Assembly (NCBI GenBank): GCA_041649475.1
Contig: JBAZNA010000001.1
Span: 814,594-878,593, forward strand
DNA from: Patescibacteria group bacterium
GTDB taxonomy: Bacteria; Patescibacteriota; Patescibacteriia; Magasanikbacterales; GWA2-37-8
Reading direction: 5' to 3'
DNA length: 64,000 bases
The position numbers were made by a program, and so were the translations under genes. Under the pieces are notes generated by a model. It saw only the letters and a list, made by a program, of their open reading frames with translations. It was not told where the DNA came from and searched no databases. The stretch's first letter is position 1. Every line of letters starts with the position of its first letter. Positions 8,526 through 59,360 of this stretch are shown piece by piece.

Positions 8526-9419
8526 TTATATAGCCCATTTAAATTTTCCGTCTTTTTCGTCAAAATAATACAGCTCGGCAATTTTTGGATCTTTATATTT
8601 TTCCGATAATTCATTTAACCGGTTTAACACGCCTTCAATATTTGTAAATTCGCCCTGGGGGTTCTTTTTAAATTCAGAGGAGATTTGGGATTTGATTTCA
8701 CTCAAACTTTTTTTATTTTCAACTTTAGGTTGCGGTGGCGCTTCAGTCGCTTCAACCATATCTTGATGCAAATAATTATCTACTGCATTCACAATATTAT
8801 CCTCGTCAACTGTAGAAAAAAATATGGCTAATTCCATAAATCTTTCCATCATAACATTTGGGTCGGCCAAAAAATATTTGGCAATCACCGGATCGTTTTG
8901 AGGATAAATTATTTGCTTTAATTTATTTTCAAAATCCGCTTGCATGAGTGTGTCGGCACTGCGATTGACATTATTCATTTCTTTAATCAGATCAGAGATG
9001 ATAACTTTTTTTCCTTGCCAATCTCCAACCTTTGCCTGTGATTCTAAAAAAACCGGCTTCATTTTCAAACACAGACTTTGCATGTCCGATTTTTCCAGCG
9101 TCTTCATTTCAAAATACTGCATCAACTGTTCAAGGACATCAAAGTCAAGTGCCAAAGCCATGGGAATTTGTCTGGCAACCGCCACATTAACCAAAAAATC
9201 ACGATCTTGCGACCCGAACATTTTCCATGTCAGTTCAGTATAAATTCTAAAGTATGTCCATCTAAATTTTTCATCATCCAAAGATGAACTATTTCTAAAA
9301 AAAGCATCCAAAGATTGCCACGTCTCCTGCATCACGGATATGTTAACATGAGAGTCACGGATTTGCCGTTCAATATTCTCAAATTCTTGTGGTGTAATCT
9401 CGGTTACAGTTAACCTCAT
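8526..9419 (-). CDS. hypothetical protein (T4SS-like cluster member)
   Basis: 297-aa ORF, no TM, no recognisable motif. Tightly packed in the same-strand cluster. Confidence 0.45.
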   Translation of the reverse strand: MRLTVTEITPQEFENIERQIRDSHVNISVMQETWQSLDAFFRNSSSLDDEKFRWTYFRIYTELTWKMFGSQDRDFLVNVAVARQIPMALALDFDVLEQLMQYFEMKTLEKSDMQSLCLKMKPVFLESQAKVGDWQGKKVIISDLIKEMNNVNRSADTLMQADFENKLKQIIYPQNDPVIAKYFLADPNVMMERFMELAIFFSTVDEDNIVNAVDNYLHQDMVEATEAPPQPKVENKKSLSEIKSQISSEFKKNPQGEFTNIEGVLNRLNELSEKYKDPKIAELYYFDEKDGKFKWAI

Positions 9420-9430
9420 ATATTGTTGTT

Positions 9431-12400
9431 TTACTTTGGCTTGCTATTATTTTTTTCCAAATCCTTTATCCATTCTTTAACCATTTCTTTTTGTTCCTTT
9501 TTGATGGTTTTTTCTACTCTTTCCAAGGCGCTCTTTATCAAGTTAGCCACAGCGCCCCTGTCTTTGCTTGATTGATCCACACTCGTTTGCAATTGCTTAA
9601 GTTTTTTCACATCAGAATACTGCAGGATGTCACCCAAATCTGTTTTGACATATTCATCAACCTGATCCAACCGTGTAGAAGTGAGTGGCGCTAACAAATC
9701 AGCCACTATCTTTATAGATTCATCGGATTCAACAATAGCTTTTCTGTCCTCATTTTTATCTACAGCTCCTTCCAAGCCAGCACTAATACTGGTAATTTTT
9801 GCGGATGACCTTGCGGCTGTTCTTCTTCTTTGAATATGTTCTTTTCCTCCAGCACTACCGGCATCTGTGAGCCCCGTGGTAATACTTCCATCTGCCTGTA
9901 ATGTATCCTGGAGCAAACCGGCGACAGAAAACACACCCTGCCCTGCGGCCTTATCAAGGGACAAACGCAGCTGTTCCAACAAGGCCTGCGATCGTTCTCC
10001 GTGTATAGCGCCAAACTGCTTCACAGCTGCTTCCAACCCGTCTGGGCTTGCCGCTACCTTTTCACCAATGAGAGATGAAAATATGGCCGCTTGTACCTTC
10101 CTTACAGAACCAGCATCACTCGGATCTACGGAAATATTCTTAAGTAATTCCGGATCTACTAATTTTGAAATATTATCCATGTTTCCCAAACCAATCGCAC
10201 CGTGCTGTTCCCAATTGCCAATCTGCATTTCTGCCAAGCTCTTTTGAATCTGCGAATGTTTAAGCTTAGCCGCCACGACTGCCCTCTGATCTCCGCGTGA
10301 CTCGGCTGCCGCCAACTCTTTAAGCGCTTCGTCTTGTTTGTTGTATAATCCTTCCGTCCTAATAATTGACCTAGGGAAGTCAGTACCCACTGATTGCATA
10401 TCAATTCTTTGTTTTGCTTGTTTGCTCAAAACATTTTCCAAATTATTTGCTTCAGAAAAACGATTATTGCTTCTCAAGACCGCATCCCTGGCGCGGGCCA
10501 CATTACGTTCCTTTATTTCATTCATATCCGTATTCAACTGTTCAATCTGTGCTCTTCTGTCCGTAATATCCGCTTGCACAACTTTCCCTTGATCACTTGT
10601 TAACACTTTTTTGATCTCCTCTAATTCCTTCAGTTCTCTTTCTGCGTTCAACTTATCTTCCATTTGCTTAGTCTCCGCTTTGGCTGCAGCCGCACGCAAC
10701 ATCCTCTCTCCACCTTCTCCGGCCATTAATTTTTGCTTTATCCGCGCCCTATCTTCCTCTTGTGTTGCCTTTAACATCTGCTCTATATTTTCAGCTTCAA
10801 TAGCAGATTTATCAGCATTATTTAATCGCTGATAATCAGAAGTTTGCCGAGCATCAAATTTCCCGGATGCCTCCAGTTCTTCCAAAACCTGCTTTTCTGA
10901 TTTTCCCGCACCTTTACCCGCGGCAACCGCGGCCGCTATAGCTCTATTATCTTCATCTTGTTCTTCATATTTTGTCTGTAATTTTCGCCTCTTAATATCC
11001 TGACCGGTTCTCTTCAGTTTTTCCAAGTCCGCTTCTTCTTGTAGCTTTCTTTGGCCGGTCGGGGTCTTGCTGGTGCTTATTCTATGCTCTTGTTGCTCTA
11101 TTGCATATTTTGCAGCTGTTTCTTCATCCTTTGCCAATTCATTCTTAAACCGCTGGGGTGCAAACATCAAACCAAGTCTGGCGCCATATCTTTTCCATCT
11201 ACTTTTTTCTGTAAACTCACCTTGTTCATTTTTTCCAAAGGCAGTATCTATCCTTCTCCCCGCCGCTACAATTCTCGGCTCAACATAACCCTTGTTCCAC
11301 GCTTGTGATACTCTGCTCTTTATACGAAGCCCTCTTGCTTGCCACGCCTCTCCACCCACAAGAGGAGCTTTCATCAAAGCAAACTTTCCGGCCTTTTTTC
11401 CGGCCTCCATACCCTTTCTACCCACATACCTCGCCGCGGTCAGACCACTGGCGATCTTAGCCGTCTTTTCAACCGCACTGCTAAGCATTGACCCGCCATA
11501 CACTCCCAATTCCTGGGCCATTTTGGCTCCGGCCATCAGCATACCAATGGCAATGGCGAAGTTGGCTAAAGCGACCCAGGTCATGCCTCCGCCCACTCCT
11601 GATTTTTGGCCAACGCCCGCGTCATCAACAGCCGCCCAGGTATCACCGGCCGGCAGAGGATTATTGGCAGAACTGGTAATATCAGATTGAATATCACCCG
11701 ACCCCAAAGTAACAAAAGCCAGCCAAATAAAAAAGGCAATGAGCGGACCAGAGACGACGTTGTTACCGAATTCTTTCCACCACCGATCGGCATAACCTTT
11801 TGTTTTTGGTAAAACATTTAAGACAAAAGCTAAAGGAGATAAAACAATCAACACCCAAAGCATAACCATCCTGGCTAACAGCATAATTGCAAAAACACCC
11901 ATGGTCACCATCATCATTGCCGAAAAAACTAATCCGCCCAAAGATGCCAAAAATACATTACCGGGCGTAATTTCATTCGGCTTGGCCTGACGAGCCAGAT
12001 TAAGAATATTATTAACATTAAACATGTTAATTAAATTCCCACCGGCAGTTGCGGCCACACCGTTGATAAAAGTGATCATTATCACCTGCGCGAAGTCAAT
12101 TATAATTCCGGCAATTTGCCGGCTGAAGTTCACCAGTACGGCCGCGAATATTAATTTGCTTAATAATTTTTTCCAGGAATAATCTTCAATCCCCAAAATT
12201 GTGGCAAAAGCAATAATAAGCAAAACTATGACAAAAAACATGTTGGTTATGTCGCGCACCATGATCCAGCCGATATTTACGGCCGGAGACCTGATATATC
12301 CGTTATAACCCCCAAGAGTGATGACAAACTTAAGTAAAAATATTGAAATTTGAATAAACCAACCGGCGATTGTTAACAGTATGGTACCAATCAGATTGGC

Positions 12401-12604
12401 AGCCGTTGTCCATATATCTGCAGCAGCGGTGGCAAGTCCGGTTGCGCCAAACCACATGATTAAAATCAAACTCGCACAGATAATAAAACCAACCAAACCG
12501 ATTCGCTTTCGCTTTGGTGTTAAAAACTGCCAAAATGTTTTTATTTTAACCGCAATAACGGCAAGCATGCTTAAATTATACCACATTTGGCTACTTCCGC
12601 GCAA
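9431..12604 (-). CDS. VirB6/TrbL-like polytopic membrane protein with long charged coiled-coil C-terminal extension
   Basis: N-terminal ~330 aa contain 6-7 predicted TM helices, as in VirB6/TrbL. The remaining ~700 aa are K/E/R/Q/A-rich heptad-like sequence. Confidence 0.6.
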   Translation of the reverse strand: MRGSSQMWYNLSMLAVIAVKIKTFWQFLTPKRKRIGLVGFIICASLILIMWFGATGLATAAADIWTTAANLIGTILLTIAGWFIQISIFLLKFVITLGGYNGYIRSPAVNIGWIMVRDITNMFFVIVLLIIAFATILGIEDYSWKKLLSKLIFAAVLVNFSRQIAGIIIDFAQVIMITFINGVAATAGGNLINMFNVNNILNLARQAKPNEITPGNVFLASLGGLVFSAMMMVTMGVFAIMLLARMVMLWVLIVLSPLAFVLNVLPKTKGYADRWWKEFGNNVVSGPLIAFFIWLAFVTLGSGDIQSDITSSANNPLPAGDTWAAVDDAGVGQKSGVGGGMTWVALANFAIAIGMLMAGAKMAQELGVYGGSMLSSAVEKTAKIASGLTAARYVGRKGMEAGKKAGKFALMKAPLVGGEAWQARGLRIKSRVSQAWNKGYVEPRIVAAGRRIDTAFGKNEQGEFTEKSRWKRYGARLGLMFAPQRFKNELAKDEETAAKYAIEQQEHRISTSKTPTGQRKLQEEADLEKLKRTGQDIKRRKLQTKYEEQDEDNRAIAAAVAAGKGAGKSEKQVLEELEASGKFDARQTSDYQRLNNADKSAIEAENIEQMLKATQEEDRARIKQKLMAGEGGERMLRAAAAKAETKQMEDKLNAERELKELEEIKKVLTSDQGKVVQADITDRRAQIEQLNTDMNEIKERNVARARDAVLRSNNRFSEANNLENVLSKQAKQRIDMQSVGTDFPRSIIRTEGLYNKQDEALKELAAAESRGDQRAVVAAKLKHSQIQKSLAEMQIGNWEQHGAIGLGNMDNISKLVDPELLKNISVDPSDAGSVRKVQAAIFSSLIGEKVAASPDGLEAAVKQFGAIHGERSQALLEQLRLSLDKAAGQGVFSVAGLLQDTLQADGSITTGLTDAGSAGGKEHIQRRRTAARSSAKITSISAGLEGAVDKNEDRKAIVESDESIKIVADLLAPLTSTRLDQVDEYVKTDLGDILQYSDVKKLKQLQTSVDQSSKDRGAVANLIKSALERVEKTIKKEQKEMVKEWIKDLEKNNSKPK

Positions 12605-13280
12605 TAATATATAGATAGTGTCCCCAGAAAGGAAAAATCCTGTTTAAAATGCCATCAAAAACACCAGCAATCGGCATATCCGCGTAAGGCGGTTTGGCAA
12701 AAAACTTGACTGAAGAGAAGCCATTTCGCCTTAACCAGTGTTTAAATTTAAATGGCGAATATTTTTTGTGCGTGCCATAAGGCCAGCGTTTTTTTATGCG
12801 CAGATACCATTCCTGCATAACACCGAATGAAAGCAGATTCGGCTGAACAATAATTAACAAACCGTCAGGTTTGAGCACCCGGCGCGCCTCGGATATTGCT
12901 TTTTCAATTTCATCAAAATATGTGAGCACGCCCCAGCTTAACACCACATCAAATGTCTGGTCGCTAAAAGGCAAAGCCCGCGCGTCCGCAACCTGGTAAG
13001 TATTCATATTAGTTGGTTCAATTGCCTTTGCCCGTTCAATTGCCCCGCTGGAAATGTCTATGCCACAACCGGTTGTCTGAAAATTTTGTTGTAAATATCT
13101 TAGCGCCGCTCCGTCGCCACAGCCCGCATCCAACACTTTTTTGCCCAAAAAATCAATGCCAAAATTCACCAGATCAGAAATTTTTTCTTCTGTTTTAAAC
13201 ACCCGCCGCGGGTAAAGAGAATACTGATTATTTTTTAACCAGATGGCATCCCACCGGTCAGAGATAGAATTTTTTGGCAT
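12591..13280 (-). CDS. class I SAM-dependent methyltransferase
   Basis: Motif I LDAGCGDGAA and motif post-I GIDIS, Rossmann MTase fold. Overlaps the downstream VirB6-like gene by 14 nt. Confidence 0.8.
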   Translation of the reverse strand: MPKNSISDRWDAIWLKNNQYSLYPRRVFKTEEKISDLVNFGIDFLGKKVLDAGCGDGAALRYLQQNFQTTGCGIDISSGAIERAKAIEPTNMNTYQVADARALPFSDQTFDVVLSWGVLTYFDEIEKAISEARRVLKPDGLLIIVQPNLLSFGVMQEWYLRIKKRWPYGTHKKYSPFKFKHWLRRNGFSSVKFFAKPPYADMPIAGVFDGILNRIFPFWGHYLYIIARK

Positions 13281-13343: not shown

Positions 13344-13372
13344 TTGACAGAACCTCGTCTTTTGGCTATATT
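13344..13372 (+). promoter_or_regulatory. sigma70-type promoter (TTGACA-17-TATATT) for GC-rich lipoprotein gene
   Basis: Consensus -35 at 13344-13349 and -10 at 13367-13372 with a 17-nt spacer. Leader hairpin CCCAAC-ctggtg-TTGGG at 13381-13397 and SD AAGGAGAGG follow. Confidence 0.6.
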
Positions 13373-13422
13373 ATCTGGTTCCCAACCTGGTGTTGGGTAC
13401 GAAAAAGGAAAAGGAGAGGCAC

Positions 13423-15375
13423 ATGACCAAGATCGGCTTCTGTTTCGTGGCGTTTCTCGCGTTCATCCTGTGCGCCTGTGGTGGTAACTCCGGAACCGGT
13501 GATGGCGGCACGGACAACCACGACAGCGCCGTCAGCGACGGCACCCTGCCCAACGACGCCAGGGATACGGCCCCTTCGGAGTGCACGAGCAACGCGCAGT
13601 GCGACGATGGCATTGACTGCACGGACGACACCTGTTCGTCCTCGGGCTGGTGCACCAACACGCTGGTGCCGGCGCGGTGTCCGACAGGTACGTGGTGTAA
13701 TCCCACCAAAGGTTGCGAGGCCGGAAAGGCCTGCGCCAAGGACGAGGATTGCGACAGCACCGATGCCTGCGTCGTGAACAACGGCTGTGATCCTGCCTCG
13801 CGCGTCTGCATGTGGTCAGTGCTTGACGGCGATGGCGATGGACAGCCCCCGCTTGTGTGCGGCGGAACCGACTGTGATGACAGCGACTCCGACGTCTACG
13901 CCGGAGCTCCCATGCGTTGCAACGGCAAAGATAACAACTGCGATGGGATCGTGGATACCGGAACCGCCACGGACGAATGGTGCAACGAGACCTACGGACC
14001 GGGTCACGCCTGCCAGTCAGGGCACTGCGTCTGTACGACCGGGACACAGTGCGGGTACACGTGTGCGGACTTGCTCACCGACAAGAACCACTGTGGCACA
14101 TGTTTCAACCCATGTCCGCTCAATGAAGTGTGTGTACAGGGTCAGTGTGAGTGCCCGAGCAGTGGCCAGACATTCTGTGCTGTTGATGGCTGTGTTGACC
14201 TCACGAGCGACAAATACAACTGTGGCGAGTGTGAACACGGCTGCTGGGCAGACCAGACATGCGTAGCAAGTCAGTGCGCGTGTTCAGGCAACCTGACGCA
14301 ATGCGGTTCGTGTGTGGACACACAAACCGACAACGACAACTGCGGTTCGTGCGGTCACGCCTGCAGCTCGCCTGCCAGCTGTGTGTCGGGTCAGTGCCAG
14401 TGTCCGACCAGTGGCCAGAGCTATTGCGATGGCGCCGGCTGTGTGGATCTTCAGACCGACCACGACAACTGCGGCACATGCGGGCACGCGTGCCGTGCAA
14501 GCGATACATGCTGGAGCGGCAGCTGCCCGGCTTACTGGAAAAACGTCGTGAGTAACACGGCGCTGAAGCTCAACGCAGTATGGGGAGCCGCACCCAATGA
14601 TGTCTGGACTGTTGGAAACTACACCACTGGCTCCCTGGGAGGCGCCATCCACTGGAACGGTAGCTCGTGGGCGCCTATGGGTGGCGCGACATCGAAACTC
14701 TACGGAATCTGGGGAACCACGCTTAATTTCTGGGTCGTTGGAGAAACCAGCGGGTACCTCGAGGTCTGGAATGACGTCTCCGGCACTTGGGAGGGTATAC
14801 CCAACGGGTGCACGACAGCTTCCCTCTATGGTATCTGGGGAACTGCGATTGATGATACCTGGTTCGTTGGAGCCGCCGGAACGACTGTCTATTTCAACGG
14901 CAGTACGTTCTCATGCGTCCCCAGCGGTTCAACGAATGTCCTCCATGGAGTAGGAGGCACCGCCAACAATGACGTCTGGACAGTAGGAGACGGCGGTACC
15001 ATCCTCCATTGGAATGGAAGCACGTGGTCCAGCGTGACCTCCAATACGACGAACGCCCTCTATGGAGTGTGGGGCAACACCACCAGTGATGTCTGGGTGG
15101 TGGGCGACTACGGTACCACTCTTCACTGGAATGGAAGTGTGTGGTCAGCCGTCGTCAGCTACACAGGATCAAAACTCAACGGCGTGTGGGGCAGTAGTGC
15201 CAACGATGTCTGGGCTGTGGGAGATGTCGGGGTCATCCTCCACTGGAACGGGAGTAATTGGTCCACTGTTGCCACAGGGACAACGGCACATTTCTCTGCC
15301 GTGTGGGGCAACAGCGCTACTGACATCTGGGTTGTGGGAGAAGCGGGAACCACTCTCCACTACTACACGTACTGA
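13423..15375 (+). CDS. secreted Cys-rich lipoprotein with putative metal-binding Cys/Asp motif, CGxCGHxC repeats and eight C-terminal ~40-aa propeller-like repeats; very GC-rich
   Basis: Start ATG at 13423 after SD AAGGAGAGG. Signal peptide plus Cys lipobox region (FLAFILCACGG). DGDGDGQPPLVCGGTDCDDSDSDVYAGAPMRCNGKDNNCDG matches the MopE-type putative metal-binding motif. The C-terminal repeats follow WGxxxxDVWxVGxxGTxLHWNGSxWS, eight copies. GC3 is far above the genome background. Confidence 0.75.
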   Translation: MTKIGFCFVAFLAFILCACGGNSGTGDGGTDNHDSAVSDGTLPNDARDTAPSECTSNAQCDDGIDCTDDTCSSSGWCTNTLVPARCPTGTWCNPTKGCEAGKACAKDEDCDSTDACVVNNGCDPASRVCMWSVLDGDGDGQPPLVCGGTDCDDSDSDVYAGAPMRCNGKDNNCDGIVDTGTATDEWCNETYGPGHACQSGHCVCTTGTQCGYTCADLLTDKNHCGTCFNPCPLNEVCVQGQCECPSSGQTFCAVDGCVDLTSDKYNCGECEHGCWADQTCVASQCACSGNLTQCGSCVDTQTDNDNCGSCGHACSSPASCVSGQCQCPTSGQSYCDGAGCVDLQTDHDNCGTCGHACRASDTCWSGSCPAYWKNVVSNTALKLNAVWGAAPNDVWTVGNYTTGSLGGAIHWNGSSWAPMGGATSKLYGIWGTTLNFWVVGETSGYLEVWNDVSGTWEGIPNGCTTASLYGIWGTAIDDTWFVGAAGTTVYFNGSTFSCVPSGSTNVLHGVGGTANNDVWTVGDGGTILHWNGSTWSSVTSNTTNALYGVWGNTTSDVWVVGDYGTTLHWNGSVWSAVVSYTGSKLNGVWGSSANDVWAVGDVGVILHWNGSNWSTVATGTTAHFSAVWGNSATDIWVVGEAGTTLHYYTY

Positions 15376-15427
15376 CACTAGCACTGCTTCGCTCCTTCCT
15401 ACCTTTTCGCTCCTTTTCACCCCTTCG

Positions 15428-15476
15428 GCCCGGCCCTATCTGACTTCAAGGTCAGTGGGGTACGGGCTTTTTTATT
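15428..15476 (+). terminator. rho-independent terminator
   Basis: Long near-perfect hairpin gcccggccctatctgac-ttcaag-gtcagtggggtacgggc followed by TTTTTT. Confidence 0.7.
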
Positions 15477-15508: not shown

Positions 15509-15537
15509 TTGACAAGAGCTCATTTTTGTGCTATACT
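15509..15537 (+). promoter_or_regulatory. sigma70-type promoter (TTGACA-17-TATACT) for second GC-rich lipoprotein gene, with ~165-nt structured leader
   Basis: Consensus -35 at 15509-15514 and -10 at 15532-15537. The leader contains hairpin GCTAAGTT...AACTTAGC (15576-15605) and the CCCAACC...GGTTGGG hairpin (15672-15691) before SD GGAAAAGGAGA. Confidence 0.55.
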
Positions 15538-15710
15538 AATCTGTTAGTTTTTAAATAGGTTGTTCTTTACAAAGTGCTAAGTTGAGCCGAAAGGCAGAAC
15601 TTAGCCAAATGAGATGGTAAGCCCAAGTTGGGGTGATAGTTGGTTCTAAAATCTTTAGACACAGCTACAACCCCAACCTTGGGTGGTTGGGAACAGGAAA
15701 AGGAGAAACC

Positions 15711-16166
15711 ATGCGCTACAACATCAAGAAGATCCTCGCGATCATGGGCGGCTTCGCCCTTGTTCTCATCGCTGTTGCGGCCCTCACCGGCTGTGGTGGC
15801 GACGATCCCCAGTGCGGAACCGACGGTCAGCCCCCGTGCGACGTTCAGGCCGACGGCGGCACCGACGGCACGCCGACCCAGCAGGACGCTGGCGACGGCG
15901 GTGTCATCAAGACCGACGGCGGCGACGCGGGCGGAGATCCGTGCGCGGCGTTCAATCCTTACCTGAACGGATGGACCTGCAAAACCGCTCCGAATGACCC
16001 ACTGTCGTTCTCCTGCAATTTCCTGCCTACCGCCGATGGCAGTGCATGCCAGATTGGCTGCTATGGCCACTTCTCGTGCATTGCTCCTCCGGAGATGTTG
16101 ACGTCGCAGGAGTTTACCTGCGATATGATCGGCGCTCCCGGAAACATCCGCATCTGTGTCCACTAG
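15711..16166 (+). CDS. small secreted Cys/Gly/Asp-rich lipoprotein; very GC-rich
   Basis: ATG at 15711 after SD AAGGAGAAACC. Signal peptide with classic lipobox LTGC. Eleven Cys in a 151-aa mature part. GC3 very high. Confidence 0.7.
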   Translation: MRYNIKKILAIMGGFALVLIAVAALTGCGGDDPQCGTDGQPPCDVQADGGTDGTPTQQDAGDGGVIKTDGGDAGGDPCAAFNPYLNGWTCKTAPNDPLSFSCNFLPTADGSACQIGCYGHFSCIAPPEMLTSQEFTCDMIGAPGNIRICVH

Positions 16167-16246
16167 TTCCACCCCACCATCTCGCTCGCGACGATTCACA
16201 AATCGTCGCGCGCTTCCCTAAGTAGAAAATAGCTTTTCTGTTGAGG

Positions 16247-16285
16247 AAAAACAAAAATCCCGATTCAAATCGGGATTTTTGTTTT
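16247..16285. terminator. bidirectional rho-independent terminator
   Basis: AATCCCGAT-tcaa-ATCGGGATT perfect 9-bp stem flanked by A-run upstream and T-run downstream. Serves the converging lipoprotein gene (+) and giant gene (-). Confidence 0.75.
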
Positions 16286-16294
16286 AAATATTGT

Positions 16295-19200
16295 TTACTG
16301 TGGCGCGACAATGATACTACCGAAAAATGAAGTTGAAGCAGTAGTCAAATAATTGTCGCACTCATTGACATAAGGGGATGTCCACCCCTTATCATAACAC
16401 CCACCCAGCCCATTGTGATCACAACTCCCATTACACCACCCCCAATTATCCTTCACCTGCACGGACGGTTTGAAGACGCAACAGCCACCCGGGAAACGCG
16501 CGTCCGGACAAGTGTCTTGCCAGCCGGTGCCGTCTTTTAGACATTGGTAAACGTGGTCAAAACGGAAGTATGAGTTGTCACAAGATTTATCCAATATCTG
16601 ACCGAAATTGACAGACAAACTCTCCGACAGACACTGATCCAAATATTTACAATCAGCGGATTTAACACAAGTTTTGCCGGTGTCCACGTTAACTGTGGTG
16701 CGACTGTCTGTGGAAAGGGCAGAAATATATTCCGTAGCTTGGACTTTACAAGTGCCGTTTGTGCATGTACCGGCAACTACGCCGCGATGGTTGCGATAAT
16801 AGCCATTAAGGTTGGTCAAATCACCGTCACCCCAACTGACAATAACATTTCGCAAAGGCATTTGATTGGCGTCGGCAAAGGCGTAAAATTTAATGTTGGC
16901 CGGGAAGACGTATGACGGAGAAACTACATTACCGGTTGATTGATCGTTGACGGTGATACCCGGATTACCTTCACCGCATCTGCCGGCTAAACATGCTTGC
17001 GTGTTAAGAGAGCGGACTTCGGGCGGTCTCGGTGTTAATCCCGAACATGCTTGCACAGAACTTCCGCTTAAGGTAACGTTCGGACAAATGTTTTTATCTC
17101 CTTTTTCCGTATAATTATTGTTGACGTAATAGGTTGAATTGGGAACATAGGCCTTTGAGTTAAAACTATATTCCAAATCCGCATAAACGCTCGCAAAAAT
17201 CTTGGCCGCGGCCTTTTGGCCTTGATCTAAAACAAAGTTGCTGGCCGGACTCTTTTTAACTCCGCCTGAATCGGTGGTCATGGTACAACCACTGCCATTA
17301 TCATACTGACAACTGAAAGGAGCGCCGGAAACTTGTTTGGGGGCTGTTAAATTGTATTTACACGTACAATCATAAGTCGTGCCGTCGGATTTTACCGGAC
17401 AGGGATTGCACTCACTCTCCGCCTTTGGCATGGCGCCGACAGGACTAAGCACAACAGGACTAACCGGTTGGGTATTCTGACCAATACTGCCAAATGGACT
17501 ACGATTGGTTAAATAATCATAACCCACCCAATCAGCAATCTCCGGTCCGCCAAAATCTCTTATTGAATACTTTGATTTTTGCCATAAACGATCTGTCCAA
17601 GCCACAGCGCGTCCGCCACTGGGATTAATACCACTGTCAACGGACACATCCAAAATCTTTTCGCACCACTGCCTTACTCTAAATTTCACGTCATAGTTAA
17701 TATGTCCTGTATTAGCAGAATCATCACAATAAGCTAAATAATAACCCAAAAACTTACCGGTATTTTCATCAAACTTTAACCGAACAGCATGCCAATTTCC
17801 AAAATTTTTACTAGATAATGTACAGATATCATCCATACTGATGCTTCTATTCCAAATGCCTTCCACGCCCAAGCTTCTGTTGTTAGAGGTTTTTAAAGTG
17901 TCGGCTTGCAGAATATTACCGGATAATGTGGCACAAGTTAAAGTATCCCCGCTATAACCATAACAAACCGAACCATCATCCTTAAGATAAGTGCTATTTA
18001 CCGGGTCGGCCTCATTCTTGGAAGCGCTACTATACATTAATATAAATTCATTTGCTTTACCTAAATATTTGCCAACTACAGCATGCCCAAAAGGACTAAC
18101 ATTACCGCCTCTGGTATTAAGAGCAAACACTGCTTGAGGGGTTCCAACAGGCGCGGTATTATCATTAGGCCAAACTTCAAAAACAGTACCTACTCTAGGA
18201 TCCTCCGTATCATCACCGGTCACCGTGAATTGAATTTTTTCTATGTCAGCCAAACGTAAATTCTTCTCTCCATTATTTGAGTCAGCAGGCACAAAAGCTC
18301 TTATATATGCATTGTCGGATTGTTCCATCCACCATCCGGTCTCGAGAATATTCGTATCACCCAGACCATTTGCGGTGTGCATTTGTAAATTTTCAGTACT
18401 CCCCTCTATGGCGGGATTTGGCTTGGCCGTCCACTCAAAATAATAAGGAGTAGCACCTACATATCCCATCACTTTATTTCCACTCAAACAATAATACCTG
18501 CCTCCATTTGAAGGATTAACATATCCGGCTTCCCTGTCCTGGCCATTGACATCCGGAGCGCCGATTAGAGTGTCAACCGGATACCAAGTCAAACAAGTGT
18601 TGGTCTTGCCGTCCGCGTTTAATTGTCTGGAAATATCCGGCTCCAAACAATAACCGTGCCAGCCCACAAAACTGGTTTGCTTGGTGGCTTTGTTGCAAGT
18701 GCCGCCGTCCGGACAATCAGCATCGGTTTCACAAACCTTGCCGTCACGGGTGCCATTGGAACAAATTCCGCCCACCACTCCCTTAATCATCGTATTGTTC
18801 ACGCCGGCAATGCCAACCAAATTATTCGGATTGCTTAAATTCCAATACTTGGAAATTGAATCCCCATAACTGACTTTTGTATAATCACATTCGCAGGCAC
18901 CCGCCGCACTCGCATCAGTGGTCACACCTGTCCCACTTTCATTGCACAAATTCGCGCCGGCATAATTTTGCGCTGATTTCAAACTTTGCGTGTTCGGATA
19001 CGGCGCGCTTTCTTCCGGATAATTGCGGCAAGTTTGTTTGGGCGCGTTAGCGTCAAAGTCGGCGGCCGTGCCGTTTGGGTTTAAAACGCAGACCGAATTA
19101 TTGCTGGCGGTTTTTTCACACAAACCAATGCCGCCGCGGCCGCACTTATCCGTACCTGCTTTGCAAAGATAAGATTCAGTTTTGGTTGAATCCTGGCAAT

Positions 19201-22200
19201 ATTGCGCCTCGCCGCAAGAAATTTGTTTGACTAAACGCCAATCTGCATTAGTGTTGCTTCCGCCGATATTGACCTCGCTTAATTCTTCAATCGGGAAAGT
19301 GTCCAGCAAACTGTAACCGGCAAAATCCATACCTTTCCAACTGATGTCGCGGTTGCGATACAGTGTGTCGCTTAAAACCTGGCCGGAATAGGCGCTGATA
19401 CCGTCAATCCAATGCGCGCAATTAGTTATATCACTGTCAGTAAATGATTGCGGCACCTGGTCACAGCGGCCGATCCTGTCGCAGACCTCTTTATAGGCGC
19501 CTTTGCTTTGATCCCAAACCCGATGCGATGAACGGCACTGCAGCCATTCACCGCAAGTCCGGTCGCGGGTAACTTTTATAATGGTATTAGCATCATTATT
19601 GGCAGTACTGGTTGGCGGCACGGACTGTTCATTTAATGATTTACTGATCGCGTAAGTAACTTCCGTATCAAAAAGTTTGTTCGGCAGATCTGTCTCGTCA
19701 AACAAGATACAACCGTCTTTCTGGCTTACCTGTCCATTACATTCGCCGATTTTTTTAGACAAATTGTCATTGTTGATAACATAATACGATTTATCACTGT
19801 CATGATGATCCACAAATTCGGTACAGCCGTTTTGCTCAACCGGACACTCGCCGACAAAATTTTTATATTTATCCTGTACGCCGTATGACCAAATATCATA
19901 GACATTGCCGGATTTTATATAATCCGGATAACATGGCTGGGTGCCGTCGCCCACGCCTTTCCAGAACCAGCCGGCGGATTTAACGCCATTAACGGTGATA
20001 TTAGTTCTATAGGCACAAATCTTTTGGCCGATAATTTTTGGATCTTTGAAATACATCGTGCCGTTTCCATAAGAATAGGCGCTGCAACCGACCGCTTCAT
20101 TTTGACACAAGATGCTGTTATAGCTGGCCGGATCATTTTTAATAAGCACGTCATTATATGCCTGACTGCTAGTAGTTTGAGCTATTTGTCCGGCGCTTAC
20201 ACAGCCCAAATCAATGGAATTGCAAGTCGCGTCTTGATTGGCCACTAAATAAATCGGTGACTCTGGTGTGGTATCCGGAGGTATATATACAGTGGAGGTT
20301 GTGATAAAGGCCTTACTGCCGGCTTGTGTTTGGATTTCGGCAATGGTCGCTCCATTTATATTAACATAACAACCATCACGATCTTGCTGGATCTGACATT
20401 TGTATTCTTGGCTGTTAATAGTGACACTGACATTTTGTCCGGCCGCGCCAACCAACCAAACATTATACGCCTGTGCGTTCGAATTATCAGGAGTATTGAA
20501 GGTATCAAAAAGTGCTGTGCAACCAATCGCCCCTTCTCGGCACAAATAACTGAAGCCGGTTAAATAAACCGAAGCGGCGGCCGGAGTTTGATATTTTGAA
20601 CAACCCAGGGCCTCGCCGGGTAAATTATCGCTCGGCTCGCTATCGCAAACCGAATCAACGCGCAATGAATTTTTAACCAAATAAACATAATCAGAAACTT
20701 CAGTAAAATGAACATTATCAATAAAGACAGTGCCATTACCGCCCAAAGAGAACACTAAATTGGTTGACGAGACACTGCCGGAAAGTTCAACCGGTCCGAG
20801 GTGATAATACTGCCAGGTATCGCTTATTCCGACCGTACCCAAATCACTTGGTGGCGACGGTGGACTGGTTTGATTTTGTAATGAAACCTTAACGCTGTTC
20901 GCGTTGCCCTTTACCCAGAAAGTTAAATCATAACTCTTTTGCGGAGTTAAATTTAAATTTTGTTTGTAAAATGTCTGGCCGGTAGTGCCATTATAGGCCA
21001 AGGAATGTTCACCGACATGGGTTGACTCCAAAGATACGCCAAGCACTCCGCCCGCACTCGCCCAATTGATGGCGCCTGTGCTGGTTACTCCTTCAAAACT
21101 ATCAGTAAAAATTGTTTGGATATTATTTCCGGCATTGCCTTTATAGGCGTGGCAAGTATTTGCAAACGCGGAACATGATTGGCTTGAACCGGCATTGGTG
21201 TAGGTGCCGGCGGCCAAGCCCATATAAAAACACTGGCCATTTCGCAGTTCACCGTTTAAAAGACAGTTGCCGATGCTGTCAAGCTCCGGATTATCCAAGC
21301 GATATGGCGTGCACTGATCGGAAACCACGATTGTTTTTGAAAGCAATTTATAATAAACATTTCCCTGGTCATCGTTAAATTGACGGCAATCCAAACTGGC
21401 GGTACCGGCTTTATATTCTGCTTCGCTACAGGCCGTATTACTAAACGTTTTCGGACTGCCATCCGTGTCTTGTTCTAAAAGAAAGGCCTTTAATTGATAC
21501 CCGCCGGCGGTTGAGCCCTCGTAAGTGTAAAATTTCTTTTGTAAATTCGGATCCGGATTTATACACGGACGCAAATAAGAAAAATATTCAACTCTTTCCA
21601 AACCGGCCGTGGTAGTGCTTAAATTGGTAAAACCGGTACAACCCTCATCTTGAGCGCTGCACTTATTTCCGGAGGAAGGAATGATGTATGAAATTGATTG
21701 GCCGTTTGAATAATTGTTCGGCATCTCGCGGTAAGCCGCGTAGCCCTCGCAGCGCGCATCGCATTGATCGTTCCAAATAATATTACCATTATCAATCGCG
21801 GCTGGAGTGAAGCGCCCGGGAATATTATCACCGCCATAAGTTATGGGCGTATACCAATTACAATTCACTTCATCGGGCGTGCAGGCCTGGGAATAATTTT
21901 GGCAGTCAACTGTTGGCTGTAATCTAGATAAATCCGCTTGAGTTCGCGGCCAATCAATTTTTGGCGTGGCTAAATTAATATCATAACACTGGGCGTAGTA
22001 AGGAGCTTTTTTCAAGTACGCGGTAATTGACGAGCTGGCCACATTAAAGGCCGAACAGCCGGCCGAATCAGCCGAACAACTGGAAGATAAATTATGATTA
22101 AAATAAATAACAGAATTTTGATCACCGCTCACTAAATCATTTCGCGAGTAACCGGTCCAGACCCCGGAGGTGACGGTGGTATAATCTTTTTTCAAACTAT

Positions 22201-23998
22201 AAGCCGTACAGCCCGCATTATTGGCGTCGCAGTAACCGGTATCCAAAGTCCGATATAAATAACTCACGGTATTGCCGGTGCTGTCTTGAAATGTTTTACA
22301 GGTGCGATATTGGGCATCGCAGGTTTGGGCATCAATTTTCCAAATATTTTTTTCTCTGGTGCAATAACCGCTGATAGCACAGCTGCCATTGCTGTCATTC
22401 GCCACACAAGTGCTTAAATCGACGCACTCCTGCTGACGGTTTGGGCCGCTTGAGTCCGCCAAACTGGGCCCGTAGCCCACAACATTACACCTGGCGGCCG
22501 GGGCTTCCAAAACCCAATTCGGATCTATTAAGTGGCAAAATGGTTTATTGATCGGATCATTCTGCACCCCAACTACATTACCGCGGCTGTCTTTGATAAA
22601 AATACAATCATTAAACCCATCCACAACCTGTTTGAGCGTCCATGGCTTATCCGGATTACTGTAAAGGGTCGCAATTTCAAAACCAAGGGGCAAGACCCTG
22701 GCTTTTCGCAGTTTGGCAATGTTGGCGTAGCAATACGCTGAATTGTAACAAGATCTATTGGTATTGTCGGACACGCGCTCCGGCGGGATAAGTTTCCAAT
22801 CGCCATGAAGCCAATTTTTTGCCAAGGCCTCGGCGATTGAAACCGGTGTACCAAAACCCTCTTCCTGTGCCGCCTGCACCAATCCGCCATCGGCTACACA
22901 GTTGTCAGGACCGGGATTATCAGGACAATTTGAAAAATTGGAGAGCACATCATACTGGCTTACCTCAATAGTCGGCGGCACCAACAGTTCGCTGAACATA
23001 TTTTGCGCGGCGGCAATTCCACCTGTGTATTCGGCATCATAGTTGGCAACCACATTACCGGTGGCCGGACAATTACTGCCCACACAGCCCAGACCAAAAG
23101 GCAACATGCCTTTGGTCATGTAATTTTTTAACATCGTGCCGGCCAAGGTCGTCAAAAATAATTTTGCCGCTCCCATCATTGAGCCCTCCAGACCGGAGCC
23201 AATGGTGGCCATGGTGCTTTGCTGGCTGGCCGCGATTTTTTTATCCGGAGTATTGCTCAAACCGACTGCCTGATTAGCGGCCGCCGGACTGGTGATACCG
23301 CCTGAAATCGGCTGGGTTGACGGTTTAAATCCCTGACCCTCTTGTCTTTGTAAAGCAGCGGCGGCACTTTCTTTAGCCACCATATTATCAATTTTTTGTG
23401 AAGCGCTCATGGCTAAGCCAATATCGCTCTGGCCAACCTGAAAAGAAGCATTAAACCTGTTTTCCAAGGCCTGACCGCTGTATTGACTCTTCCAGCTGTT
23501 GGCTGACCAATTTTTTTGAAAATCACTGAAAGTACAACTTGGATTGGTTGGTGGGGCATACTGCATTTGCAAACCAAGACGAAGGGCCAGATCCATTCTT
23601 ACGTCCGGAATTTTACAAAGATTCAAACCAAACGGTTTGCCAAGCTGTTCAATGGCCACGCCGGCCGCGTTGTTGGCTACATCTCCTAAATAGCTGCCAA
23701 AACTTTTGGTGTGGGCCAACGTGCCCTGACCCTTGCCGCCGGAAGCGACATAAACGGCCGTGTCATAAGCGATTTTTCTGACAAAATAATCAACGGCTCT
23801 AACCACGGCATTAACAATGGCGGTTTTGAATCCGGTTTGAACTTTATTTTTAATTTGTACAGCATTAAATGCGGCCAAAAGAGCCGCGTCGGCAACAGGC
23901 ATCCCCTGCGCGTGAGCCGGTATTGCTTGAAACAAAAATGGAAACAAAAATATGAACGTGATCAGTCCGATAAAAATTTTTCTAAACCTGAAAAACAT
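16295..23998 (-). CDS. giant (2567 aa) secreted Cys-rich surface protein
   Basis: Uninterrupted 7.7-kb ORF. N-terminal signal peptide MFFRFRKIFIGLITFIFLFPFLFQAIPAHAQG, then a Cys-poor ~270-aa region, then >100 Cys in N/T/G/S-rich sequence. Includes a jelly-roll/CBM-like segment (SFEGVTSTGAINWASAGG...TFWVKGNANSVKV). Confidence 0.85.
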   Translation of the reverse strand: MFFRFRKIFIGLITFIFLFPFLFQAIPAHAQGMPVADAALLAAFNAVQIKNKVQTGFKTAIVNAVVRAVDYFVRKIAYDTAVYVASGGKGQGTLAHTKSFGSYLGDVANNAAGVAIEQLGKPFGLNLCKIPDVRMDLALRLGLQMQYAPPTNPSCTFSDFQKNWSANSWKSQYSGQALENRFNASFQVGQSDIGLAMSASQKIDNMVAKESAAAALQRQEGQGFKPSTQPISGGITSPAAANQAVGLSNTPDKKIAASQQSTMATIGSGLEGSMMGAAKLFLTTLAGTMLKNYMTKGMLPFGLGCVGSNCPATGNVVANYDAEYTGGIAAAQNMFSELLVPPTIEVSQYDVLSNFSNCPDNPGPDNCVADGGLVQAAQEEGFGTPVSIAEALAKNWLHGDWKLIPPERVSDNTNRSCYNSAYCYANIAKLRKARVLPLGFEIATLYSNPDKPWTLKQVVDGFNDCIFIKDSRGNVVGVQNDPINKPFCHLIDPNWVLEAPAARCNVVGYGPSLADSSGPNRQQECVDLSTCVANDSNGSCAISGYCTREKNIWKIDAQTCDAQYRTCKTFQDSTGNTVSYLYRTLDTGYCDANNAGCTAYSLKKDYTTVTSGVWTGYSRNDLVSGDQNSVIYFNHNLSSSCSADSAGCSAFNVASSSITAYLKKAPYYAQCYDINLATPKIDWPRTQADLSRLQPTVDCQNYSQACTPDEVNCNWYTPITYGGDNIPGRFTPAAIDNGNIIWNDQCDARCEGYAAYREMPNNYSNGQSISYIIPSSGNKCSAQDEGCTGFTNLSTTTAGLERVEYFSYLRPCINPDPNLQKKFYTYEGSTAGGYQLKAFLLEQDTDGSPKTFSNTACSEAEYKAGTASLDCRQFNDDQGNVYYKLLSKTIVVSDQCTPYRLDNPELDSIGNCLLNGELRNGQCFYMGLAAGTYTNAGSSQSCSAFANTCHAYKGNAGNNIQTIFTDSFEGVTSTGAINWASAGGVLGVSLESTHVGEHSLAYNGTTGQTFYKQNLNLTPQKSYDLTFWVKGNANSVKVSLQNQTSPPSPPSDLGTVGISDTWQYYHLGPVELSGSVSSTNLVFSLGGNGTVFIDNVHFTEVSDYVYLVKNSLRVDSVCDSEPSDNLPGEALGCSKYQTPAAASVYLTGFSYLCREGAIGCTALFDTFNTPDNSNAQAYNVWLVGAAGQNVSVTINSQEYKCQIQQDRDGCYVNINGATIAEIQTQAGSKAFITTSTVYIPPDTTPESPIYLVANQDATCNSIDLGCVSAGQIAQTTSSQAYNDVLIKNDPASYNSILCQNEAVGCSAYSYGNGTMYFKDPKIIGQKICAYRTNITVNGVKSAGWFWKGVGDGTQPCYPDYIKSGNVYDIWSYGVQDKYKNFVGECPVEQNGCTEFVDHHDSDKSYYVINNDNLSKKIGECNGQVSQKDGCILFDETDLPNKLFDTEVTYAISKSLNEQSVPPTSTANNDANTIIKVTRDRTCGEWLQCRSSHRVWDQSKGAYKEVCDRIGRCDQVPQSFTDSDITNCAHWIDGISAYSGQVLSDTLYRNRDISWKGMDFAGYSLLDTFPIEELSEVNIGGSNTNADWRLVKQISCGEAQYCQDSTKTESYLCKAGTDKCGRGGIGLCEKTASNNSVCVLNPNGTAADFDANAPKQTCRNYPEESAPYPNTQSLKSAQNYAGANLCNESGTGVTTDASAAGACECDYTKVSYGDSISKYWNLSNPNNLVGIAGVNNTMIKGVVGGICSNGTRDGKVCETDADCPDGGTCNKATKQTSFVGWHGYCLEPDISRQLNADGKTNTCLTWYPVDTLIGAPDVNGQDREAGYVNPSNGGRYYCLSGNKVMGYVGATPYYFEWTAKPNPAIEGSTENLQMHTANGLGDTNILETGWWMEQSDNAYIRAFVPADSNNGEKNLRLADIEKIQFTVTGDDTEDPRVGTVFEVWPNDNTAPVGTPQAVFALNTRGGNVSPFGHAVVGKYLGKANEFILMYSSASKNEADPVNSTYLKDDGSVCYGYSGDTLTCATLSGNILQADTLKTSNNRSLGVEGIWNRSISMDDICTLSSKNFGNWHAVRLKFDENTGKFLGYYLAYCDDSANTGHINYDVKFRVRQWCEKILDVSVDSGINPSGGRAVAWTDRLWQKSKYSIRDFGGPEIADWVGYDYLTNRSPFGSIGQNTQPVSPVVLSPVGAMPKAESECNPCPVKSDGTTYDCTCKYNLTAPKQVSGAPFSCQYDNGSGCTMTTDSGGVKKSPASNFVLDQGQKAAAKIFASVYADLEYSFNSKAYVPNSTYYVNNNYTEKGDKNICPNVTLSGSSVQACSGLTPRPPEVRSLNTQACLAGRCGEGNPGITVNDQSTGNVVSPSYVFPANIKFYAFADANQMPLRNVIVSWGDGDLTNLNGYYRNHRGVVAGTCTNGTCKVQATEYISALSTDSRTTVNVDTGKTCVKSADCKYLDQCLSESLSVNFGQILDKSCDNSYFRFDHVYQCLKDGTGWQDTCPDARFPGGCCVFKPSVQVKDNWGWCNGSCDHNGLGGCYDKGWTSPYVNECDNYLTTASTSFFGSIIVAPQ

Positions 23999-24006
23999 AT
24001 TTTTGA

Positions 24007-24642
24007 TTATTGCCCGGTAATTTGACTGCTAATAGTGGACGAAGCCAAAATTTCCTGAACCATTACCATTAAATCAGCATCTGAAGTGCTGTCTAAAACC
24101 TTTTTTTCAACCCCGGCCGATAGGAGCATTTGTCTGACTTGAGCCGGGTCGGTTAAGGCCTGACTCAAAGCGTCAATGCTGGCGCTTGAGTCGGGCTCCT
24201 GCATTTGACTGATCACTTCCGCAGTAGTACTTGGCGACCCTCCGGAAAGCGGCACGGCTTCACTGCCGCCATTTACACAAATTTTGGTTTTTTCATTGCA
24301 CAAGGGGCTTGAACCTTTGGCTATCTCTACCCCGTCGGGAATGCCGTCTGAATCCGTATCAGCCAAATACGGGCTGGTTCCGTATATAAAAATTTCATCA
24401 AAATCGCTAAGCCCGTCATGGTCGGTATCGCGGTATTTAAGGGTATCAATATTGTTGACAACACCGCTGTCAATCGGCGGCACTTCTTTGTTAAGCGCGA
24501 GCGGACCATACATGGAATTTCTAATCTGCAAAGCGCCCAAACCGACCGCAAAAATAGCAAAAATCAACAGCAAGACAAATCCCATCTTCTGCGTCTTTGT
24601 TAGACCGGGGCGAGAATTTAGTTCATCTGGCATATCTACCAC
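24007..24642 (-). CDS. membrane-anchored protein with thrombospondin type-3-like Ca-binding repeats
   Basis: Single TM (FVLLLIFAIFAVGLGAL) then DTDHDGLSDFDE / DTDSDGIPDGVE Asp-rich Ca-binding loops. 8 nt upstream of the giant gene. Confidence 0.55.
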   Translation of the reverse strand: MVDMPDELNSRPGLTKTQKMGFVLLLIFAIFAVGLGALQIRNSMYGPLALNKEVPPIDSGVVNNIDTLKYRDTDHDGLSDFDEIFIYGTSPYLADTDSDGIPDGVEIAKGSSPLCNEKTKICVNGGSEAVPLSGGSPSTTAEVISQMQEPDSSASIDALSQALTDPAQVRQMLLSAGVEKKVLDSTSDADLMVMVQEILASSTISSQITGQ

Positions 24643-59200: not shown

Positions 59201-59360
59201 TTTGACCTTGATTTTCTACCCAAGGAATGATGACGTTGGTTATCTTTGTTTGTTGGGCAGCAGAAAAATCAGCTGCTTTAGCCGGCATGGTGCCAAAACA
59301 AAAAATTGCCGTGAGTATAATTAAACCCACCGTTGCTAATTTTATATTTTTTCCGCTCAT
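56232..59360 (-). CDS. secreted SBBP (beta-propeller repeat) surface protein, 1042 aa
   Basis: Signal peptide (LIILTAIFCFGTMPAKA). About 10 SBBP-type repeats (YSTDFPTTTGAYDT...GDSDVFVTKF). Poly-Thr linker TTSTTTTTTVTT and a C-terminal domain. Confidence 0.75.
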   Translation of the reverse strand: MSGKNIKLATVGLIILTAIFCFGTMPAKAADFSAAQQTKITNVIIPWVENQGQIKDDSVKFSANIFMGTVFVTDNGTITYSLKQNKADQKGAVIKEIPQFKNTPLITGQEQTETKINYFIGADKSKWQTNVAAYNVVLFGEIYPNIELKLKAHGNNVEKLYTIYPNGDPSDIKMTIKGADKLSLTKDGQLQADVHGVKPIYFTKPIAYQDINGTRVNVSIQYKLNKNSYSFTVGAYNKNYNLVIDPELDTLLVSTYFGGSTDGESPLAMTADADGNLFILGNTYSTDFPTTTGAYDTELDTGPDIVIIKMDSDLSSLLAMTILGADGWDEAWNLGIDGSGNIFIAGDTDTTFPTTTGAYQTSTNGLGEGFVSKLDNDLTSLLASTYFGGSDNEYVTDIKLDSSGNVYIAGYTASNDIAITAGTYGVDYGGGAEDGFVVKFNNALTHATSTYIGATGDEWINALALDGSGNVYLAGNTTDSSFPTTTDAFDTTPNVGPGNNDGFVVKLNNDFSSLLSSTLLGGSDDDRIWAMTLSPTYDSLYVAGRTYSTDFATTSGAYDTTQNGDSDVFVTKFNIGLTQALASTYLGGSGEDRLSDPAEIYVDAYTVYLSGTTASTGFPTTTGAYQVTRAGGFDSFLTKMSLGLTALQGSTYFGGTLNEGNGGLYVNSERVVYLLGDTYSTNLPVTAGAYSTSNAGSYDMFIAKFGNPVPAITSLSPSRYRFDDTSPFTLTVNGTGFVVSSTIKINGVSFTTTYVTTTKLTSTVTAGDIGTHGTYDVTVYSSTPGGGTSASSIFTLYIQNGGGGYISTPAPIVVSAPSTPVVSPTTSTTTTTTVTTLAGCPALSAGDMVKVTGKAAIYSLNSNLQVLYFPSGDEFKSWNVDNSYGGYKSISQSCFDALSVPSTYPGAVNYRPGSYVVKKSSADQLYVVLPNNTLSKITDTDATALYGQNYTVKIISDPFWPHYINRGTDTTSSAHQGMLISKDTKTWYVDAGNVLREVTANGMTTNRFKTSFIHVVSESYLTGFTTGDLIDVEVPIIASRVQ

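Follow-up and report, generated by a model that had tools for sequence, protein, structure and literature searches.

What is a large cysteine-rich lipoprotein doing inside the type IV secretion cluster of a bacterium belonging to the candidate phyla radiation (CPR)? CPR bacteria, or Patescibacteria, live attached to other microbes, and for most lineages both the host and the attachment molecules are uncharacterised. The question is posed by a 64,000-nucleotide (nt) stretch of contig JBAZNA010000001.1 (positions 814,594 to 878,593; assembly GCA_041649475.1, Patescibacteria, Magasanikbacterales), which we call the window. Within a conjugation-like type IV secretion system (T4SS) cluster it carries a gene for a lipoprotein with a long Cys-rich stalk and a head predicted to be a seven-bladed β-propeller. 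On balance we favour the reading that this is an acquired, surface-displayed lipoprotein, which most likely serves to adhere to a host or partner cell, or to recognise it. The T4SSs of monoderm bacteria depend on surface adhesins, and a survey detected none in Patescibacteria (PMC12102498); the gene provides a concrete candidate for a surface adhesin in such a cluster. What stands out here is its position, as an accessory and probably acquired surface protein in a CPR secretion cluster, the parts themselves being already known.

The C-terminal ~280 residues of the protein consist of repeats with a mean pairwise identity of 44%, which start at residues 394, 437, 479, 518, 557, 596 and 635 (in the 661-residue numbering, read from an upstream GTG) and are spaced by 43, 42, 39, 39, 39 and 39 residues. 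Their periodicity is far above chance: the BLOSUM62 self-score is 348 at a lag of 39 and 230 at a lag of 78, while the maximum across all lags in 500 shuffles had a mean of -80 ± 19 and a top value of 20. A hidden Markov model (HMM) made from the repeats found exactly seven domains, confined to this open reading frame (ORF) among those of the window. At the DNA level five copies recur at 117-nt spacing and are 61-75% identical, and the duplications are therefore old. Tandem Repeats Finder missed the blades in the DNA, where they are too diverged for it; a separate DNA repeat search recovered them.

AlphaFold2 modelling of residues 376-661 from an alignment of 97 sequences (A1) predicts a closed propeller of seven blades with four strands each (28 strands; predicted local distance difference test, pLDDT, 94.9; predicted template modelling score 0.92). 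In this model the seventh repeat ends after three strands, and a short strand ahead of blade 1, YWKN, has no partner repeat; its Trp is retained in the family consensus. We infer that YWKN provides the fourth strand that the last blade lacks, as a 'velcro' closure of the ring. An earlier note on this DNA, made from the letters alone, had proposed eight near-regular repeats over the C-terminal ~280 residues and an eight-bladed propeller on a Cys-rich lipoprotein. The three peptides that it quoted are all present, the repeat search confirms the periodicity (348 at lag 39, far from the shuffled scores), and the model bears out the propeller. The number of blades has to be corrected to seven, as counted from the repeats, the HMM domains and the strands, and among structures found with Foldseek a seven-bladed designer protein (7big; template modelling score, TM, 0.84; root mean square deviation 2.3) fits better than the eight-bladed Tako8 (TM 0.71).

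By statistical ranking, the structures of Ycf48 came first in the Foldseek search of the PDB (E 1.7e-13, TM 0.79), and the A1 profile, built from 97 family members, matches Ycf48 sequences over their full length (E 5e-10). The family profile was needed for this link because the single sequence gave nothing significant against PDB sequences, only marginal matches to TLAP2 (0.011) and a bacteriochlorophyll a protein (0.02). Pfam and NCBIfam have no match to the blades of this protein, and WD40, Kelch and other named propeller repeats were rejected on that ground. PSII_BNR (PF14870), the model of the Ycf48/HCF136 family of photosystem II assembly factors, does not match it even at E ≤ 1 and matches 2 of the 97 family members, whose Pfam matches as a whole are scattered and weak (DUF2510, Rax2, PSII_BNR, Tectonin). 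Taken together, profile and model place the head as a distant member of the Ycf48-like propeller superfamily, in a very large subfamily (at least 4612 homologues of residues 376-661 among 8000 candidates scored) for which Pfam and NCBIfam have no matching model. A scan of reference genome contigs found the family in Gemmatimonadota, Chloroflexota, Actinomycetota, Acidobacteriota, Gammaproteobacteria and Bacteroidota. Its members are commonly fused to Big_1/invasin, CarboxypepD_reg, SdrD_B, SpaA, fn3 and dockerin modules, and the frequent fusion to adhesin-type modules supports the adhesin reading.

The same blades also occur on what looks like a pilus of another CPR lineage. An Uhrbacteria contig (PFWT01000009.1, 9203-13846) encodes a 1547-residue protein that combines a prepilin N_methyl motif with enough of these blades for several propellers; they are 44% identical to the window propeller (PSII_BNR, 6.3e-38). 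Its gene has native GC content and lies inside a type IV pilus cluster with PilB, PilT, PilC, a GspH-like minor pilin and PilM. The protein is a candidate giant pilus-tip adhesin, and the propeller family, as this minor-pilin-like sequence shows, is native to the CPR. In the Saccharibacterium TM7x, deletion of the propeller-bearing minor pilin PilX2 lowers host binding (PMC11623550). The adhesin reading gains support from these two cases, because the Uhrbacteria pilin carries the same blades and PilX2 is needed for normal host binding. The PilX2 propeller is seven-bladed and of the RCC1 type, whereas the Uhrbacteria protein shares the blade family of the window head; both pilins differ from the window protein in being anchored by a pilin N-terminus rather than by lipid, and in having no Cys-rich stalk.

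At the other end of the window protein, the general rule for bacterial lipoproteins asks for an N-terminal signal peptide that closes with a lipobox, [LVI][ASTVIC][GAS]C, and the sequence MTKIGFCFVAFLAFI-LCAC, judged by eye, follows this rule with the Cys at residue 19. The full-length AlphaFold2 model has a helix at residues 7-15, within the signal peptide. The stalk spans residues ~54-368 and has 52 Cys in these ~315 residues, compared with 2 in the propeller, giving an even total of 54 after the anchor Cys. Three family models match it above their curated cut-offs: the MopE-type PF11617 (32.7 bits against a gathering cut-off of 27; residues 161-189 in the 661-residue numbering), Stig1 PF04885 (39.6 bits in four stretches, against 24.1) and the MXAN_6577-like NF041328 (111 bits against 100, E 4.3e-32, model positions 23-144 of 145). 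The CxxGxCxC/DxxNCGxCGHxC repeats and the metal-binding-like DGDGDG...NNCDG motif of the earlier note are these same elements. In the DNA the 8-Cys repeats are spaced by 129, 120 and 129 nt. The full-length model gives the stalk a pLDDT of 80-97 and the propeller a poor structure, because the mixed alignment mis-registers the repeats; a PDB search with this model was uninformative for the stalk.

The stalk has relatives of a narrow kind. All 13 of those that carry an organism name belong to Myxococcota or 'Deltaproteobacteria' (Sandaracinaceae, Polyangiaceae, Sorangium, Pendulispora, Myxococcales), and the Cys-rich matches in reference genomes are mainly from Myxococcota, with two from Chloroflexia, on contigs of 59-73% GC. 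The assignment of this stalk type to high-GC social or predatory bacteria, made in advance of any search, has therefore held. Myxococcota 'MopE-related' or MXAN_6577-like proteins (NF041328; P0149 of Sandaracinaceae, P0182 of Sandaracinus) are colinear with the stalk at 41-46% identity; unlike the window protein, they mostly lack a propeller and come from genomes of 59-73% GC, and their own function is uncharacterised. The occurrence of the stalk in Myxococcota hints at a gene-exchange partner or a host.

For the complete architecture, a strict motif screen of the 119 best full-length matches found none with at least five blades and strict Cys motifs. The nearest full-length relative is P0186, a 652-residue metagenomic lipoprotein on a contig of 66% GC, which has a lipobox, Stig1-like CG.CG repeats and seven blades in the same order and is colinear with the window protein over ~450 residues at 33-34% identity. 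It differs in its N-terminal domain, has only 29 Cys, uses codons that fit its own contig, and is likewise uncharacterised. Among 5.8 billion proteins the window lipoprotein, itself excepted, has no relative more than ~48% identical and is a singleton. By these comparisons the full architecture is rare but present elsewhere, with every part belonging to a known kind.

We then turn to the locus. The T4SS cluster encodes a VirB4/TraG P-loop protein, a TraC-like protein, PrgI and TrbL, and the lipoprotein gene lies on the strand opposite to its operon, between the TrbL/VirB6-like gene and a gene for a giant protein. An NCBI protein named Patescibacteria, on a 963-kb contig, has the very sequence of the TrbL/VirB6-like protein, and the window also encodes GroEL, GyrA, UvrAB, FtsH and PilB. 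Six relatives, with TrbL proteins 39-47% identical to that of the window, share the order RrnaAD, TSP3-like protein, giant protein of ~2500 residues, small opposite-strand ORF and TrbL, followed further on by PrgI, TraC and VirB4. Both the propeller lipoprotein gene and the methyltransferase gene next to it are missing at that site in all six syntenic relatives, and the T4SS locus has therefore gained two additional genes. A 1.6-kb contig of a closer relative (L039) has homology that begins at 15476, immediately past the lipoprotein terminator, although this contig, being short and oddly arranged, is a boundary hint only. The gene borders lack direct repeats on their flanks, an integrase and a tRNA, and insertion by a mobile element was rejected.

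Within this setting the codon usage of the gene stands out. The coding region is 57-65% GC, compared with ~44% for the genome, and its GC content at third codon positions (GC3) is 0.69, against 0.51 expected from its own amino acids and the codon usage of the genome. Leu is encoded by CTC in 50% of cases (6% in the background) and Asn by AAC in 71% (31%). Its relative synonymous codon usage correlates with that of P0186 (r = 0.72) and of the neighbouring small lipoprotein gene (0.77), and not with that of the genome (r = -0.04). Expression-linked codon bias was rejected as the cause, as the GC3 of GroEL (0.46) equals the background. The earlier note had called the architecture unexpected in a CPR genome: the six relatives without the gene and the foreign codon usage agree with that view, and the native propeller family of Uhrbacteria speaks against it.

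The small lipoprotein gene changes how these numbers are to be read. It is a conserved resident of the slot between the giant-protein and TrbL genes, on the opposite strand, in 7/7 CPR genomes. Its GC3 is 0.76 in the window (0.50 expected) and 0.74, 0.58, 0.86 and 0.83 in those orthologues whose frames could be assigned (0.38-0.46 expected), and its slot forms the main GC-rich stretch in every 23-kb locus. The family is clade-specific, with 13 matches among 1.84 billion representatives; the orthologues evolve fast (23-35% identical, 128-178 residues), with the Cys conserved and a lipobox in all seven, which lends indirect support to lipoprotein processing in this genome. A vertically inherited CPR gene thus keeps a 'foreign' codon usage, a puzzling anomaly of composition. 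Since this neighbour is equally GC-rich in all relatives, GC3 cannot tell when the propeller gene was acquired, and high GC as the sole proof of a recent transfer was rejected. More generally, the small lipoprotein cautions against equating GC islands in CPR genomes with recent transfer.

Altogether, we propose the following. A Sec/lipobox signal peptide would direct lipidation at Cys19 and so anchor the protein to the cytoplasmic membrane, at its outer face, in a cell with probably a single membrane. After a short disordered linker, the ~315-residue stalk, composed of the MopE-related module and four 8-Cys MXAN_6577/Stig1-like repeats and presumably locked by disulfides, would hold the head at a distance from the membrane. 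The seven-bladed head would most likely use one of its faces to bind a ligand, either a peptide or a glycan carried by another cell, and adhesion or recognition of this kind would support contact-dependent processes, with a possible link to the secretion system. The gene is an accessory insertion into the otherwise conserved T4SS cluster of this Patescibacteria lineage, and the gene, or parts of it, most likely came from a Myxococcota-like bacterium of high GC content; acquisition is argued because the gene is missing in the relatives and the stalk has its affinity to Myxococcota. The TraA protein of Myxococcus xanthus, which serves cell-cell recognition, follows the same design logic, with a membrane anchor, a rigid stalk of disulfide-rich repeats and a recognition domain at the distal end, its Cys-rich repeats having been proposed as a rigid stalk that presents that domain (PMC3325183). 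The likeness is one of analogy only: TraA differs in its head (PA14), its repeats (TIGR04201) and its anchor (a C-terminal MYXO-CTERM sorting tag), and neither a PA14 domain nor a MYXO-CTERM tag is found in the window protein by Pfam or NCBIfam, its sequence ending in the propeller.

Several points weigh against this proposal. The putative function rests on architecture and analogy. At 33-34% identity P0186 is too distant a relative to point to a donor. The intergenic DNA is AT-rich and native-looking, unlike a freshly transferred high-GC block, and the same GC-rich codon usage is found in the syntenic, clade-specific small lipoprotein of all seven genomes. Lastly, the six relatives possess the T4SS without the gene, and the protein is therefore not a core part of the secretion system.

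Other readings were weighed against the same evidence. It is possible, although unlikely, that the head acts as a lectin or captures substrates, binding polysaccharide or further environmental polymers in nutrient scavenging or biofilm attachment, with no host role and an accidental position in the T4SS cluster. Dockerin, CBM-like or carboxypeptidase-regulatory modules are present in some homologues, the family occurs in many free-living phyla, and there are weak tectonin-type links, namely a match to 5fsb (E 3.9e-4) and one family member that matches Pfam Tectonin. However, it was the full-length model, of low confidence, that gave the 5fsb match, sugar-binding residues were not identified, and the insertion site, the CPR pilin relative and the TM7x precedent fit cell-cell contact better.

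Lipoprotein propellers also dock on membrane proteins: BamB does so on BamA, and Ycf48 on the D1 protein of photosystem II, which it binds through a conserved Arg patch in oxygenic phototrophs. That the propeller lipoprotein docks in this way, as a scaffold or assembly factor for the adjacent T4SS, seems to us still less probable. In favour of such a role, Ycf48 is the closest solved relative by fold and profile (PF14870; PDB 2xbg, 5ojr), with the same seven-bladed fold of ~280-300 residues and four-strand blades, and the cyanobacterial protein is itself a lipoprotein (PMC8038367); BamB structures are among the weaker fold matches, and the gene is placed between the TrbL/VirB6-like and giant-protein genes. 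The identity to Ycf48 is just 16-18%, as for a homologous superfamily member and not an orthologue, and the window protein departs from Ycf48 in its long Cys-rich stalk and in the high regularity of its WGxxxxDVWxVGxxGxILHWNGSxWS blades. Ycf48 works with photosystem II, while the window gene lies in a T4SS cluster of a CPR genome that has no photosystem. Moreover, the secretion machine works without the gene in the six relatives, a 315-residue Cys-rich stalk suits outward reach and not docking on a membrane complex, and most homologues are fusions with adhesin or Ig-like modules.

A more speculative idea, which we hold to be improbable, concerns the slot itself. The GC-rich, 'foreign' codon usage of the small lipoprotein, maintained over deep divergence in 7/7 genomes, might mean that this conserved T4SS slot is dedicated to GC-rich lipoproteins tuned to a high-GC host, by repeated exchange or by receptor mimicry. 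The propeller lipoprotein, a receptor of myxobacterial type with Cys-rich stalk and propeller that the slot would have received as an addition in this genome, would then be a determinant of host range, and the host one of the Myxococcota; if so, these bacteria would exchange genes with their host through the conjugation-like machine, or mimic host surface receptors for docking.

The expression signals of the gene bear on its integrity. The ORF list gives it as 13390..15375 (+), 661 residues when read from GTG 13390, but ATG 13423 is the more likely start, because AAGGAGA precedes it and the resulting 650-residue product exactly matches the database protein P0121, which is found on two contigs, one of 963 kb and one of 633 kb, that stem from different sources. 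The promoter region is AT-rich and native-looking for this genome. A 22-nt block at 13396-13417 is repeated with 82% identity at 15685-15706, upstream of the small lipoprotein gene. Folding of the terminator RNA gave -28.4 kcal/mol (z -3.95), and 0/200 shuffles were equally stable. By its sequence signals, then, the gene has a promoter, a ribosome-binding site and a terminator of its own. The least probable alternative, a very doubtful one in our judgement, makes the gene a passenger without adapted function, either an unpurged recent transfer or an assembly chimera of a high-GC fragment with a CPR contig, which would suit a singleton of foreign codon usage that is missing in relatives, but is weakened by the intact 650-codon ORF with a consensus promoter, ribosome-binding site, strong terminator and native-looking AT-rich DNA, by the identical protein on two contigs of different sources and, for the chimera, by the adjacent GC-rich gene, which is genuine and clade-conserved, so that GC-rich segments here are not artefacts. 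The features are collected in Table 1.

Table 1. Positions of the elements of the propeller lipoprotein gene and of the small lipoprotein genes (in the window unless another contig is named).
Feature	Position	Strand	Basis or remark
Sigma-70-like promoter, TTGACA-17-TATATT	13344..13372	+	consensus scan, 11/12 matches
Shine-Dalgarno sequence, AAGGAGA	13411..13417	+	5 nt ahead of ATG 13423
Lipoprotein coding sequence	13423..15375	+	650 aa; GC 0.595, GC3 0.69; genome ~0.44
Signal peptide, MTKIGFCFVAFLAFILCAC, lipobox L-C-A-C	13423..13479	+	translation; Cys19 is the predicted lipid anchor
Linker (aa 20-53), enriched in Gly, Asp, Thr and Ser	13480..13581	+	predicted disordered, pLDDT 37-48
N-terminal Cys-rich module (CDDGxDCTxDxC...)	13582..13980	+	pLDDT 80-91; colinearity with Myxococcota 'MopE-related' proteins
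MopE-type putative metal-binding motif (aa 150-178)	~13870-13956	+	Pfam PF11617
Four tandem 8-Cys repeats, ~43 aa (C..G.C.C ... CVD..TD..NCG.CG..C)	13981..14526	+	Stig1/MXAN_6577-like, pLDDT 91-97
N-terminal strand YWKN	14533..14544	+	first model strand (E7-10), just past the last stalk cysteine
Seven blade repeats	14569..15372; starts at nt 14569, 14698, 14824, 14941, 15058, 15175, 15292	+	self-comparison, repeat HMM, AlphaFold2
Intrinsic terminator	15427..15474	+	20-bp GC-rich hairpin then UUUUUU, directly past the stop codon
Small lipoprotein gene	15711..16166	+	151 aa, Cys-containing, lipobox LTGC; own promoter 15509-15537
Small-lipoprotein orthologues	L031 9113-9610; L033 9434-9844; L035 9056-9592; L037 8920-9369	opposite to operon	synteny

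Some further observations concern the neighbourhood. The second extra gene, at 12591-13280 (-), encodes an S-adenosylmethionine-dependent methyltransferase (Methyltransf_11/23/25); it has native GC content and lies between TrbL and the propeller gene, divergent from the latter. The small lipoprotein has its closest relative on the L039 contig (positions 1-1619; Logan SRR25490534), at 53% amino acid identity and 85-87% nt identity in gene and promoter. An unrelated 100-residue ORF and a fragment like the C-terminus of the giant protein lie upstream on this contig, an order that differs from that of the window and reflects either a rearrangement or a chimeric contig.

Public gene calls in the GC-rich slot look wrong when compared with the lipobox ORFs. 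In the window, ENA has a 210-residue ORF on the opposite strand (15567-16199, -) in place of the small lipoprotein. The small-lipoprotein frames are likewise uncalled or mis-called in two relatives: the slot of L032 has no gene call despite a lipobox ORF, and the call at 9058-9507 (-) of L036 is an Arg/Pro/Ser-rich wrong frame, the lipobox ORF being in another. In a further relative, L031 (GCA_035473115.1, DATION010000007.1), the TrbL orthologue (P0241) bears the label 'Candidatus Udaeobacter sp.' (Verrucomicrobiota). The contig on which it lies is 109 kb long, has 40% GC and shows gene-for-gene synteny with the Patescibacteria T4SS locus, and is likely mis-binned or mislabelled.

The giant protein (16295-23998, -) is Cys-rich, has 2567 residues and contains no Pfam domains; its counterparts in the relatives have 2522-2564 residues, and in L035 the protein is split in two. 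A TSP3_bac-like protein of ~200 residues (24007-24642, -) follows, and together with the giant protein it adjoins the T4SS genes in all relatives; the two are probably surface components of the T4SS. Between the convergent small-lipoprotein and giant-protein genes, a perfect 18-nt inverted repeat at 16248-16285 (AAAACAAAAATCCCGATT / AATCGGGATTTTTGTTTT) is probably a bidirectional terminator. Elsewhere in the window, at 56232-59360 (-), a second and unrelated propeller-repeat surface protein of 1042 residues, with DUF7948 and SBBP repeats, is encoded at native GC content.

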